Origin: Thermoplasmata archaeon
GTDB taxonomy: Archaea > Thermoplasmatota > E2 > JACPAO01 > JAHFTW01
NCBI GenBank assembly: GCA_034667725.1
Contig: JAXDQS010000010.1
Location: 192,001 to 256,000, forward strand
DNA length: 64,000 nt
Reading direction: 5' to 3'
Shown one piece after another: positions 18,801-57,004 of this stretch; position 1 is the first letter of the stretch; each line of letters starts with the position of its first letter. The notes below the pieces were generated by a model. It was not told the origin of the DNA. It did no database searches and worked only from the letters and a program-made list of their open reading frames with translations. Position numbers and translations under genes: made by a program.

Positions 18801-19380
18801 TCCCCTGGAGTTCTACCAGGCCACCCAGCGCCACGCCGCCGCCAAAGAGGTCGCCAGGAAGATGGGCCTCGTCGAAACGCGCATCGGCAAGCCCGAGCAG
18901 TACGAGCACTGGGGCTTCACCCACGACACCCGCGACATCTCCGAAGGGCCCGCCGCGTCCGCCTACAAGACCTTGGGCTCGATGATGGACAAGATGACGG
19001 CCCAGATGGAGCTCGCCCGCAAGATCCGCGCCGTCGACGAGGCCGAGGTCGGCGCCCGCGTCATCGGCACCCACCTCCTGCCCGACCTGATGGGGAACCT
19101 CAAGGCGTTCAGCCGCCAGAAAATCCGCTGCCCCAAGTGCAACGAGAAGTACCGCCGGATGCCCCTCAAGGGCACCTGCCTCGGCTGCGGCAACGCCAAC
19201 CTGACGCTCACCGTCCACGAAGGGTCGGTGCGCAAGTACCTGCAGATCTCGAAGGAGGTCGCGGTGCGCTACAAGATCGACGCCTACACCCACCAGCGCA
19301 TCCTCCTGCTGGAGCAAAGCGTGGAGTCGCTGTTCCAGAATGACAAGGTCAAGAAGGCCAAGTTGAGCGACTTTTTCTGA
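15889..19380 (+). CDS. polC: DNA polymerase D large subunit DP2 (no intein)
   Basis: AGPIRAAGGTAQA, GGFRLRYGR, GTQLK.ERPGK, catalytic HAAKRRNCDGDED, zinc fingers and C-terminal PIP-like KKAKLSDFF. Confidence 0.98.
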   Translation: MGAEAQQQVVAAPTAPTGPARSPAMQAYFETLHGEAMRCYAIAKQARRKGKDPTTEVEIPPAEDLAARVEAQVGPPGVAQQVRDATARLGNREVVSLFVAQDVAEQMSQRGASKVQALDQAVRTGLSILTEGVLVAPLEGIADVKIGANTDGTDYVDLYFAGPIRAAGGTAQAMSVLIADLVRRRLGIGTYKATDDEVERYKEEIAAYKVEAHLQYNPTPAEIELIARSCPVCINGEGTERSEVSGNRDLPRVETNQLRGGACLVMAEGMILKAPKILKHVEKLKVENWDFLQKLIKKEKAAELAADGIPEIPANAKFMLEILAGRPVFAQPGRVGGFRLRYGRARTAGLASNAFHPATMAVLDDFLAVGTQLKVERPGKGTVATPCDTIEGPTVLLQNGNLLRLSTMAQVKEVRAAIKEIVDVGEILIPFGEFAENNAVLPPSSWCWEWWVQVHQNMTGMAADVHPAGTLTGAQMVRLAEDTQVPLHPDGTLLWHDATAVQMRELGDWLLRHAFWGTPPDDAAGTLANPAASEAEALWIENQPEAKATLVTLLALHTAHGRWLRVEERLAHPLVRGVGLDLADGKVRDTPRRKLLHDPCQPDLTGRFPTVELASRLSGYTVMPRAPFRVGGRMGRPEKADARRMSPPPHGLFPIGQAGGAQRLLRDAADQGVVEVELGSRKCASCGRSEWRTFCGGCGGHTTFHERKQKEGSFTQREMTSLDLRAELERARQSLGLDRLPEKVKAVLGVVNAEKVPEPLEKALLRAKHDVFVFKDGTTRFDMTDVPLTHFRPREVGTPVARLLEMGYTHDLHGAPLERDDQLLELRVQDIVVSESCGDYLLATARFMDELLTRFYGLKPYYNASHRRDMVGHLTIALAPHTSGGVLSRIIGYTRSQCHFGHPYFHAAKRRNCDGDEDGVMLLLDGLVNFSRKYVPDKRGGLMDLPLVLSTRLDPNEVDKEAHNVDTLFRYPLEFYQATQRHAAAKEVARKMGLVETRIGKPEQYEHWGFTHDTRDISEGPAASAYKTLGSMMDKMTAQMELARKIRAVDEAEVGARVIGTHLLPDLMGNLKAFSRQKIRCPKCNEKYRRMPLKGTCLGCGNANLTLTVHEGSVRKYLQISKEVAVRYKIDAYTHQRILLLEQSVESLFQNDKVKKAKLSDFF

Positions 19381-31163: not shown

Positions 31164-32459
31164 TTGGCTGTCAATGACTTGTTTGGCCAGTTGCTCCAGG
31201 TCGAGCCCCTCTTCGTGAACAAGGAGGTCATGCGGGCCTCCTACACGCCCGACGACCTGCCGCACCGGGACACGGAGATCCGCTCGCTCGGCAGCCTGCT
31301 GGTCCCCGCCCTGCGCGGCGAGACCCCGTCGAACGTCTTCATCTACGGCAAGACCGGCACGGGCAAGACCGCCTGCGTCAAGTACGTCGGCAAGGAGCTC
31401 AGCCACAAGGGCGTCGAGCTCGGCAAGCGCGTCAACCTCATCTACATCAACTGCGAGATCGTCGACACCCAGTACCGCGTCCTGCAGAACATCGCCAACG
31501 CCTTCGTCCCCGCAGAGAACTGGAACCACCGCATCCCCTTCACCGGCTGGCCCACGGACGAAGTGTACGAGGCGCTGCGGCGCTACGTCGACGGCTGGAT
31601 GAAGGCCGACGACACCCAATGGGTCCGCGACCCCAGCCGCGTCGGCGGCGAGGTCACCATCATCGTGCTCGACGAGGTGGACAAGCTCAAGGGCGACGAG
31701 GTCCTCTACAACCTCACCCGCATCAACGGCGACCTGGCCCAGAACAAGGTCAGCGTCATCGGCATCTCGAACGACCTCAAGTTCACCGAGTTCCTCGACC
31801 CCCGCGTCAAGTCGTCCCTCGGCGAGGAATCGATGATCTTCGCGCCCTACGACGCCAAGCAGCTCGAGGACATCCTGATGCAGCGCGCCACCATGGCGCT
31901 CAAGCTGAACGTCGTCCAGGACGGCGTCGTGCCCCTGTGCGCCGCCCTGGCCGCCCGCGAGCACGGCGACGCCCGCCGCGCCCTCGACCTCCTCCGCGTC
32001 GCCGCCGAATTGGCCGAGCGCGACCGCGCCCCCAAGGTCACCGACGCCCACGTCCGCATGGCCCAGAACAAGATCGAGCTGGACCGCATCAGCGAGGTCG
32101 TGCGCACCCTGCCCACCCAGAGCAAGCTCGTCCTGCTGGCCACCATCCTCGGCGAGGAGGCCAACCGCGACCAAGGCGTCCACACCCTCACCACCGGCGA
32201 GGTGTTCGACGTCTACAAGGACCTCTGCAAGCACACCGGCAGCGACGTGCTGACCCAGCGCCGCATCACCGACCTCATCAGCGAGCTCGACATGCTCGGC
32301 ATCTTCACGGCCCGCGTCATCTCGAAGGGCCGCTACGGCCGCACCCGCGAGATCCAGATGAGCTGCCCCATCGACAGCACCAAGCGCGTGCTGGAGGAGG
32401 ACGAGCTCATCCGGACGGTCGTGCAGCACAAGCCGAAGAAGCAGCATCGTCTGACTTGA
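31164..32459 (+). CDS. cdc6: Orc1/Cdc6 replication initiator
   Basis: Y.PD.LPHRD, Walker A GKTGTGKT, Walker B LDEVD, LDPRVKSSL, GDARRALDLL and wH domain (ELDMLG...GRYGRTR). TTG start after SD GGAGGT. Confidence 0.97.
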   Translation: MAVNDLFGQLLQVEPLFVNKEVMRASYTPDDLPHRDTEIRSLGSLLVPALRGETPSNVFIYGKTGTGKTACVKYVGKELSHKGVELGKRVNLIYINCEIVDTQYRVLQNIANAFVPAENWNHRIPFTGWPTDEVYEALRRYVDGWMKADDTQWVRDPSRVGGEVTIIVLDEVDKLKGDEVLYNLTRINGDLAQNKVSVIGISNDLKFTEFLDPRVKSSLGEESMIFAPYDAKQLEDILMQRATMALKLNVVQDGVVPLCAALAAREHGDARRALDLLRVAAELAERDRAPKVTDAHVRMAQNKIELDRISEVVRTLPTQSKLVLLATILGEEANRDQGVHTLTTGEVFDVYKDLCKHTGSDVLTQRRITDLISELDMLGIFTARVISKGRYGRTREIQMSCPIDSTKRVLEEDELIRTVVQHKPKKQHRLT

Positions 32460-32556
32460 CCTGGCCGGGGGGCCGCAGGCCTTGCCGCGGGGCGACCCTC
32501 GGGGCGGAGCCCCCGGGTGCAGCACAAGCCGAAGAAGCAGCATCGCATCGTCTGAC
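32421..32556 (+). repeat. Direct repeat of the cdc6 3' end flanking a 61-bp hairpin cassette
   Basis: GTGCAGCACAAGCCGAAGAAGCAGCATCGTCTGAC (32421-32455) vs GTGCAGCACAAGCCGAAGAAGCAGCATCG-CATCG-TCTGAC (32517-32556). The spacer contains GGCCGCAGGCC and GGGGCGGAGCCCC. Confidence 0.92.
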
Positions 32557-32557
32557 G

Positions 32558-32618
32558 CCATCCACCGAGGACACCGAGACCACCGAAGTTCGGTGTCCTC
32601 GGTGCGCTCGGCGGATGG
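32558..32618. repeat. Palindrome of 9-nt CACCGAG units (REP-like / bidirectional terminator)
   Basis: CCA-TCCACCGAG-GACACCGAG-ACCACCGAA-G-TTCGGTGTC-CTCGGTGCG-CTCGGCGGA-TGG. Confidence 0.85.
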
Positions 32619-33137
32619 TCAGTCGTTGCCCCGCATCGCCGGCTTGTGGGCTCCGCCCTGCACCGGCTTCGCCTTCACCGGCGACCCGCACACGATGCAC
32701 TCCTCGCGCTTCGGCATCGTGTCGAACCAGCGGCCGCACCCGATGCAGCGCGGCCGGAAGTCCAGCGTCGCCGCGATGCCTTCGGTGTTGACCGTCTGCG
32801 TGCGCACGCCCAGGCGGCGCGCCACATCGAGGAGCGTGTAGTCGTCCGTGACCAGCGTGCCCGCCAGGTCGACGGCGAGGGCCGCGAGGCTCAGGTCGGC
32901 CGCGGACAGGCGGACCAGGTTGCCGGCCGCGGTGGCGACGTCGCGCACCCGCTCGACGGCCTCGGGTGTTGCGTCGCGGACCTGGAGGCCGGTGGCGATC
33001 CAGTTGTCGTAGCGGCGCGCGTCGCGGCCCCCCGTGGAGATTTCGGCGGCGGCCTCCGGCGTCGTGGCCCAGTTGGCAGAGCGGGGCGGGTCTTTGCCGC
33101 CAAGGAGCAGGCTGGTGTCCAGGACGAGCCAGGGCAC
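32619..33137 (-). CDS. nob1: Nob1-family PIN endonuclease with Zn ribbon
   Basis: VLDTS, LS.AD, TDDY and C..C...C..CG motifs. Confidence 0.88.
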   Translation of the reverse strand: MPWLVLDTSLLLGGKDPPRSANWATTPEAAAEISTGGRDARRYDNWIATGLQVRDATPEAVERVRDVATAAGNLVRLSAADLSLAALAVDLAGTLVTDDYTLLDVARRLGVRTQTVNTEGIAATLDFRPRCIGCGRWFDTMPKREECIVCGSPVKAKPVQGGAHKPAMRGND

Positions 33138-56509: not shown

Positions 56510-56902
56510 TTGACCGACGCCACCGTGTGGTTCGACGGCGCCTGCAGCGGCAATCCCGGCCCCATGGGCGCCGGCGCCGTGGTCGAGGTCGCCGGCCGGC
56601 GCGAATCGTTCAGCCGCAACATGGGCCACGGCACCAACAACGAGGCAGAATACCACGCCATCATCCTGGGCCTGTTGCGCGCCCACGCCGCCGGGGCGAC
56701 CCGGGTGACGATCCGCGGCGACTCCCAACTGGTCCTGCGGCAACTGGAGGGCCGCTACGCCGTCAAGGCCGCGAACCTCCAGCCCTTGGTGGCCGAGGCC
56801 AAGCGCCTGTTGGGGCAGTTCGAGCGCGCCAAGCTGGAATGGGTCCCGCGGCTCGAGAACGCCGAGGCCGACGCCGCCGCCCGCCACGCCATCGGCATGT
56901 GA
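56510..56902 (+). CDS. rnhA: Ribonuclease HI
   Basis: FDGA..GNPG..G.G, TNN.AEY.A, GDSQLV..Q..G.Y.VK and WVPR..N..AD motifs. Confidence 0.93.
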   Translation: MTDATVWFDGACSGNPGPMGAGAVVEVAGRRESFSRNMGHGTNNEAEYHAIILGLLRAHAAGATRVTIRGDSQLVLRQLEGRYAVKAANLQPLVAEAKRLLGQFERAKLEWVPRLENAEADAAARHAIGM

Positions 56903-56927
56903 GCCCTCCTGGGCGCGGACGTCCCGC

Positions 56928-56940
56928 GGGGCGCAGCCCC
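56928..56940 (+). repeat. GGGGC-GCA-GCCCC mini-hairpin (same family as after polC and cdc6)
   Basis: CCGCGGGGCGCAGCCCCCGG, compared with CTCGGGGCGGAGCCCCCGG after cdc6. Confidence 0.65.
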
Positions 56941-57004
56941 CGGTTGGGGAGAAAACCAACCTCCAACCCTCTCTTATATGGGGACGGCGCCCATCGACCT
57001 ACCC

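Follow-up and report, generated by a model that had tools for sequence, protein, structure and literature searches.

We analysed a 64-kb window (the whole stretch of 64,000 nucleotides under study), which forms part of a 487-kb contig in the genome of a Thermoplasmata archaeon (denoted G000; 2.32 Mb, 71% G+C, ~90% complete) obtained from soil metagenomes in which related strains co-occur. The window carries an orc1/cdc6 gene whose last codons are present twice, once at the end of the working gene and once behind a short spacer of hairpins. With good confidence we assign this locus to a family of hairpin cassettes that sit at gene ends in this genome, the native end of cdc6 having been displaced downstream. 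As an explanation of the whole we favour, on balance, a gene-less hairpin cassette lying in the last codons of cdc6 and carried with a copy of the gene's tail, by which the native end would have been displaced. The parts of the locus are:

31089..32459, forward strand: orc1/cdc6 gene, start at ATG 31089 or at the annotated TTG 31164, stop TGA at 32457-32459
32421..32449, forward strand: tail copy 1, an exact 29-nt repeat inside the working cdc6
32450..32459, forward strand: end of the working gene past the repeat (T CTG ACT TGA), continuous with the cassette and read as cassette-borne
32460..32516, forward strand: gene-less hairpin cassette with three short hairpins and an outer stem
32517..32555, forward strand: tail copy 2, 13 codons (VQHKPKKQHRIV and stop, TGA at 32553-32555), read as the displaced native end

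The gene product, with the C-terminus VVQHKPKKQHRLT, matches Pfam Cdc6_C (4e-29), Cdc6_lid (3e-25) and AAA families, identifying it as an Orc1/Cdc6 initiator; orthologues are present in 30 of 31 relatives, at 90-93% identity within the genus. The repeated sequence, GTGCAGCACAAGCCGAAGAAGCAGCATCG, stands at 32421-32449 and again at 32517-32545, 96 nt apart (two matches in the window versus none in 100 shuffles), and is found nowhere else in the genome; the 29-bp identity reported in a preliminary description of this DNA is therefore exact. Both tails run for 13 codons from GTG to TGA, copy 1 as VQHKPKKQHRLT (...KQHRLT) and copy 2 ending in ...KQHRIV, and translation thus confirms the two ends, HRLT and HRIV, that had been described.

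Which of the two ends is native can be judged from orthologues and from codon usage. Across 120 cluster representatives of the clade the Cdc6 C-terminus has the consensus [RK][LI][VLIFM] before the stop. HRIV and HRLV are normal endings, and HRLT occurs in 1 of the 120, in this genome alone, the opposite of the uniformly HRLT-like orthologues that the preliminary description had named as the outcome that would speak against it. The working end uses the rare codons CGT (3.4% of Arg codons) and ACT (1.3% of Thr codons), whereas the end of copy 2 uses the commonest of their families, CGC (69%), ATC (97%) and GTC (60%), in keeping with the host-like C-ending codons noted for it before. Because HRIV fits both the consensus and the preferred codons while HRLT is unique and written in rare ones, copy 2 looks like the native gene end pushed downstream, with the working gene finishing on cassette-side sequence; the earlier proposal that copy 2 is the ancestral end is borne out by both lines of evidence. 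We also considered the tail as an import from another genus, and rejected it: copy 2 matches L013 at 28 of 39 nt and a genus member at 30 of 39, which gives no signal.

Identity between the copies drops abruptly, from 29/29 to 4/10 in the last 10 nt, and this drop looks like a recombination junction. The last 10 nt of the working gene run directly into the cassette, and the junction and the stop position are common to two relatives, L103 and the sister strain L140. That the cassette supplied a new terminus, as had been suggested, is consistent with this continuity of the last codons and stop. Directly after the repeat copy 2 reads CATCG and then TCTGAC, where copy 1 reads TCTGAC at once. The letters of the extra CATCG are thus present as described, but a true 5-nt indel is doubtful: because both tails have 13 codons, and because in-frame alignment with the sister strain needs no gap to bring the stop codons and the 7-nt distance to the G-run into register, the CATCG may be a chance likeness between two diverged 10-nt ends.

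The assembly evidence consists of contigs of the genome, of JGI and of Logan. A JGI contig of 368,946 nt contains 6,269 nt identical to the locus, and a Logan contig of run X1 spans 32331-33100 with 0 differences, both tail copies included. Since both contigs are identical to the genome there, the repeat is not an assembly quirk; with three assemblies agreeing, the 29-nt repeat is confirmed as real. The soil metagenomes behind the genome do contain related strains, from which a metagenome-assembled genome could acquire an artefact at this locus, but the chance of this is close to nil, as the three assemblies are identical and a different strain from another sample has the same architecture with different repeat boundaries. 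An allele lacking the 96 nt, which the preliminary description had suggested looking for, was found in no contig of runs X1, X2, X4 and X5, a search of contigs that rare alleles could escape. In a contig of run X2 the 140 nt after the cassette are replaced by 115 other letters, a length that fits an allele of the L140 type. A scan of JGI metagenomes with the C-terminal half of Cdc6 gave only distant loci, of at most 63% identity, and was not used further.

The sister strain L140 shares with G000 the arrangement of cdc6 next to nob1 (Nob1 88% identical) and carries the same cassette at cdc6, with the right 33 nt identical and the stem of the first hairpin longer. Its repeat is exact over 62 nt, as against 29-40 nt in G000, and starts 24-28 nt further upstream. 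Apart from the stop (TAA versus TGA) the two copies in L140 are identical, and HRLV is the end encoded by each. This allele bears on the proposal, made in the preliminary description, that the copies are alternative C-termini switched by recombination. A programmed switch, in which either recombination between the copies or read-through of the TGA would alternate the C-terminal peptide of the initiator, could appeal to the difference between the ends (LT versus IV), to the conservation of the C-terminal motif in the clade and to the reading frame, copy 2 being in frame with cdc6 with zero further stops between the gene's TGA and itself. An open stretch of 19 codons is, however, expected about 70% of the time at 71% G+C (an estimate), and of 11 such pairs in the genome only 5 have a spacing divisible by 3, on which ground we rejected a read-through design. 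Because the L140 tails encode the identical HRLV, alternative C-termini are not a conserved property of the cdc6 locus, and these alleles give no sign of a cell switching its ends. We regard the switch as highly improbable and infer that the HRLT end in G000 is an incidental, tolerated by-product rather than a regulated alternative.

The same comparison gives information on the history of the tails. They are identical within G000 (29 nt) and within L140 (62 nt), yet the strains differ from each other at 5 of 29 positions; because of this the cdc6 tails would either evolve in concert or have been made afresh in each strain by repeated insertion. Over the last 45 nt of cdc6 the identity of G000 and L140 is 73%, compared with 95.4% over the 260 nt upstream; the duplicated stretch of the gene is the fast-evolving one. 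Three results are new here: the orthologue and codon evidence for the native end of cdc6, the allele of the sister strain, by which a conserved switch of the C-terminus is ruled out, and the identity of the cdc6 tails within a strain together with their divergence between strains.

The insert at cdc6 is 57-67 nt long and has no open reading frame (ORF). Its hairpins are GGCC-GCA-GGCC (32471-32481), GGG-CGA-CCC (32490-32498) and GGGGC-GGA-GCCCC (32501-32513), the first and the last being the two C-GNA-G hairpins already recognized in the spacer, and an outer stem is formed by the pairing of 32469-32475 with 32510-32516. The structure of the cassette appears to be under constraint: between L103 and L140 the pairing of the first hairpin is kept through two compensatory double changes. 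Rfam gave no match above the gathering score in the cdc6 region, with only sub-threshold miRNA-hairpin models on a palindrome further downstream. We ruled out the spacer as a whole as a multi-copy element, since the full 61 nt are unique in the genome; only the 3' module recurs.

Related arrangements occur beyond the sister strain. In L103 the cdc6 stop (TGAC) is followed at once by a related cassette, whose loop is likewise GGA. A second cdc6 tail is present in G020, from another family of the order, with 7 differences, all synonymous, and further partial units after it, and also in G027, of the same class. In L016 (G020), from the stop to +250, the units form a stack in which each has GGCC-GNA-GGCC (GAAAACACGAG) at its start and a partial tail (...ATYTGA) at its end; the first spare tail alone is full length.

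The recurring module places the cdc6 insert in a family. Five other loci contain 27-nt matches (89-93% identity) to the 3' half of the spacer, and a duplicated gene end flanks every one of them. The hairpin GGGGC-GNA-GCCCC occurs 25 times in the genome, versus about 7 occurrences expected from composition (an estimate), and at 14 of these sites the hairpin is followed, after 2-12 nt, by a copy of sequence that lies 26-108 nt upstream. All but one of the 14 (13 sites: 11 protein genes and 2 tRNAs) lie at gene 3' ends, and for the protein genes the distance between repeat end and stop codon is between -5 and +10 nt. The cdc6 site has the same layout, copy 2 starting 3 nt after the hairpin and the stop lying 10 nt past the exact identity. 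Short-range direct repeats, scanned for separately, show that 8 of 47 tRNA genes have a duplicated 3' end, as do a dozen protein genes, the PolD large-subunit gene among them. In every case an intact gene comes first, then the insert and then a partial copy; repeats measure 19-95 nt across sites and inserts 51-220 nt. A further match to the cassette profile in the window (56902-56943, GGGGC-GCA-GCCCC) has no flanking repeat.

A sister case lies in the same window, 13 kb upstream of the cdc6 tail, at the gene for the large subunit of the replicative polymerase PolD:

19344..19496, forward strand: PolD large-subunit gene end, tail at 19344-19380 (...KVKKAKLSDFF and stop), 79-nt cassette, second tail at 19460-19496

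Its cassette ends in GGGGC-GAA-GCCCC (fold z-score -4.4), and its tails differ by 2 synonymous changes. The duplicated polD tail is PIP-box-like; the working copy is written with the rare codon TTT, the spare one with TTC. Among the genus members searched this duplication is confined to G000; G022 (L139) has an independent case of about 60 nt.

Whereas only the last 10 nt differ between the tails at cdc6, the copy differences at other loci are nearly all synonymous: in the repeats we counted about 27 synonymous versus 2 non-synonymous differences, with no indels and with stops kept (counts partly manual), and both non-synonymous differences fall in the last codon. At C2:63809-64080 of G000 three tails of one gene (GGKISLGF and stop) are separated by two cassettes, and the middle tail has 6 synonymous changes. 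Since neutral decay would not give differences that are nearly all synonymous, at least some of the tails diverged while part of working genes and only later became neighbours. In this array the inverted tail copy within each cassette corresponds to the tail immediately before it, tail and mirror co-varying.

For the origin of this layout we propose, tentatively, a single crossover. A cassette would travel together with a short copy of the end of its target gene and would integrate, in a Campbell-like manner, by one crossover inside the homology of the tails. Such a crossover would duplicate exactly the homologous stretch, and the repeat length would therefore vary, as it does between 19 and 95 nt. 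The cassette-borne end would stay on the gene and the old end would move downstream; repeated integration would build stacked arrays, and the event would be reversible. Insertions with a stop-containing tail alone would leave the gene intact, and for this reason only 3' ends would be seen. At cdc6 the tails would be kept identical by gene conversion or by repeated excision and re-integration. Candidate enzymes would be those of homologous recombination in the host, or one that recognizes structure and acts on hairpins of single-stranded DNA. C-GNA-G triloops form unusually stable mini-hairpins of single-stranded DNA, such as d(GCGAAGC), and their presence points to a single-stranded DNA stage.

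Several observations weigh against a travelling cassette. No minicircle, no excised allele and no moving enzyme were seen. The ~90%-complete genome has one weak match to a tyrosine recombinase (PF00589, 27.2 bits) and none to TnpB or IS200-type TnpA (PF07282, PF01797) or to Cas1 (PF01867). The cdc6 cassette folds no better than shuffled sequence (z = 0.0; -0.46 in L140 and -0.8 in L103), and a decayed second tail was not detected at L103 (p ~0.5). Longer inserts contain an inverted tail copy (tRNA-Leu at two sites, tRNA-Arg, tRNA-Thr, tRNA-Pro, C2:63809 and C10:187671), and none was found in the cdc6 and polD inserts, where the scores were below those of shuffled controls; the inverted copy defines only a subtype, and more than one mechanism may operate. 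The same hairpin module stands beside different genes, which requires that cassettes acquire tails, a step for which the model has no explanation. Finally, tails that are identical over the cdc6 repeat are equally expected if the duplication arose in place.

In-place duplication is the main rival to the single crossover. It supposes that a hairpin landed behind the stop and that template-switching across the folded spacer copied the tail, with no tail carried between genomes. The identity of the copies within each strain is what it would give, and the L103 cassette, directly behind TGAC with no second tail, speaks for it as well. A palindromic 9-mer, GTGCAGCAC, opens the repeat and allows pairing of one copy with the other, and at the site C3:517474 tail and hairpin together are truly repeated in tandem. 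In contrast, a plain tandem duplication would repeat the spacer too, and the cdc6 spacer is single. A neutral spare copy should also gain non-synonymous changes and indels, whereas changes in the family are overwhelmingly synonymous with the stops kept, and in the three-tail array it is the middle copy alone that has the 6 synonymous changes. In-place duplication fits cdc6 taken alone and not the synonymous-only divergence elsewhere, and we consider it unlikely.

A further alternative is that each site is the scar of an integrase-driven integrative element that targeted 3' ends, whose phage-type attachment site (attP) brought the replacement end and whose interior was lost almost entirely. The layout of intact gene, insert and partial 3' copy is that of such elements, tRNA 3' ends are their favoured targets, and the arrays resemble tandem accretion. 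The inserts of 51-220 nt nevertheless share end modules across targets while their repeats are site-specific, with no common att core, and the genome holds the single weak PF00589 match given above. Repeated independent decay to an identical hairpin-only remnant would be unlikely as well, and we judge the scar improbable, less so than the switch of C-termini.

Three further features frame the locus:

30996..31017, forward strand: box resembling an origin recognition box (ORB), TTCCACCGGAAG at 30998-31009, a resemblance only and a single site
32558..32618, without strand: palindrome of 30+30 nt whose arms contain CACCGAGGACACCGA, a second repeated family, fold z-score -5.9
32619..33137, reverse strand: PIN_6/Nob1-like gene, convergent with cdc6

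The ORB-like box forms the left edge of a block of ~1.46 kb that can be aligned with the cdc6 loci of relatives. This block (ORB-like box, promoter and gene; 30996-32453) is the only part alignable among L002-L020, L103-L105 and L140. A DUF4332-like gene upstream of cdc6 is common to most genus and family members, and the neighbours differ on both sides, being carboxyltransferase and Nob1 in G000 and L140, NadA- and RibA-like in L103, and SIS and TFIIS in L105. Within a single protein cluster of 90% identity, the initiator gene has apparently changed place several times. The flanks of cdc6, nob1 and polD differ in every relative genome compared and are too diverged for an empty-site alignment. 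At the left edge of the cdc6 block a search for a direct repeat or a cassette remnant gave 16 of 19 nt at best, which is not significant (p = 0.075, 0.14). An ORB or origin role for the repeat was rejected, as only one ORB-like box lies upstream and GC skew has no turning point here. A Cdc6 relative of 693 aa in ENA (P0004) is longer by about 260 residues and has an unrelated C-terminus (...RFDN), which may reflect read-through or a fusion at the same gene end.

The palindrome starts 2 nt past the TGA of copy 2 and ends against the nob1 stop, next to copy 2 and shared with nob1 much as the preliminary description had it. Arms of its family also occur in G000 at C3:609587-609616, C3:403303-403330, C3:347751-347826, C12:23792-23819 and C6:66543-66570, and neither 12 genus relatives nor L140 have the 61-nt palindrome behind nob1. 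A third repeat family, very abundant (TCTGTGGGAATCTTCCGAATCTG / CACAGATTCCACAGA), is arranged in tandem with periods of 75-77 and 116-119 nt, for example at C3:8146-8333, C7:17779-18071, C6:89569-89935 and C10:119138-119449 of G000; motifs like it lie downstream of cdc6 in L007 and L008.

The broader reading, that these sites represent a new class of protein-less mobile DNA, is a possibility that we put forward with reserve. Its members would be cassettes of 50-200 nt, foldable as single strands and carrying their target's last codons, that integrate by pairing of tails and whose spare tail exchanges with the working one. If so, a cassette would be harmless because the working gene end comes with it, and such cassettes could live in essential genes, for instance cdc6, polD and tRNAs; a mobile element with no gene of its own would have colonised the ends of a replication initiator, of a replicative polymerase and of about one-sixth of the tRNA genes. 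By exchange between spare and working tails the C-terminus of the initiator would evolve faster; its divergence between the strains is 27%, against 4.6% just upstream. The questions raised are which host enzyme moves the cassette and whether spare ends feed variation into conserved protein termini. For gene callers and comparative pipelines, cassette sites would yield slightly wrong C-termini and "pseudogene fragments".

Among known systems, transposons and miniature inverted-repeat transposable elements are recognized by target-site duplications of fixed length and by terminal inverted repeats, whereas the repeats here range from 19 to 95 nt. The variable repeat length, with no match to Cas1 in the genome, likewise sets the cassettes apart from CRISPR and casposon insertions. 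Repetitive extragenic palindromic (REP) sequences and the mosaic elements (BIMEs) that they build are similar in being short G+C-rich hairpin modules placed genome-wide just behind genes. REPs are tied to REP-associated tyrosine transposases (RAYTs), of the IS200 type, and do not duplicate their target; at the cassette sites the target tail is duplicated, and no IS200-type transposase was found in the genome. In Campbell-type integration a circle with a homologous fragment duplicates the homologous stretch on both sides of the insert, reversibly by recombination between the repeats. The cassettes show the same duplication of homology, the circle being hypothetical in their case, and to our knowledge such integration is familiar from the laboratory and from plasmids and not as the lifestyle of a natural element of 100-200 nt.

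Elements with tyrosine integrases have attachment (att) sites in the 3' ends of tRNA and protein genes, where a direct repeat flanks the insert, the element supplies the gene end and tandem accretion occurs. The cassettes are like them in the direct repeat at the 3' end, the intact gene, the tRNA targets and the tandem accretion. They differ in having no integrase in inserts of 51-220 nt and in their variable repeats despite the same end hairpin; the sites that share the 27-nt end module have unrelated repeats, and there is accordingly no common att core.

The closest parallel is with the WHO homing elements that Torulaspora and Lachancea yeasts carry at FBA1. According to Coughlan et al. (2020, PMC7282813), each integration replaces the 3' end of FBA1; there, as would be the case here, the 3' end of an essential gene is replaced, the old end is displaced downstream and spare ends form arrays. 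WHO elements measure kilobases and encode their own homing endonuclease, unlike the cassette of about 60 nt, in which no ORF and no nuclease were found, and they sit at FBA1, where the relatives of the cassette sit at tRNA genes and many different genes. The cassette thus departs from integrase elements and from homing elements that exchange the end of a gene, WHO elements and mitochondrial mobile ORFs among them, in what defines them, with no nuclease, no integrase and no common core, and we found no description in the literature of such protein-less cassettes in archaea. If the proposal is right, the principle behind homing elements and integrase att sites would here be reduced to about 60 bases of hairpin DNA.

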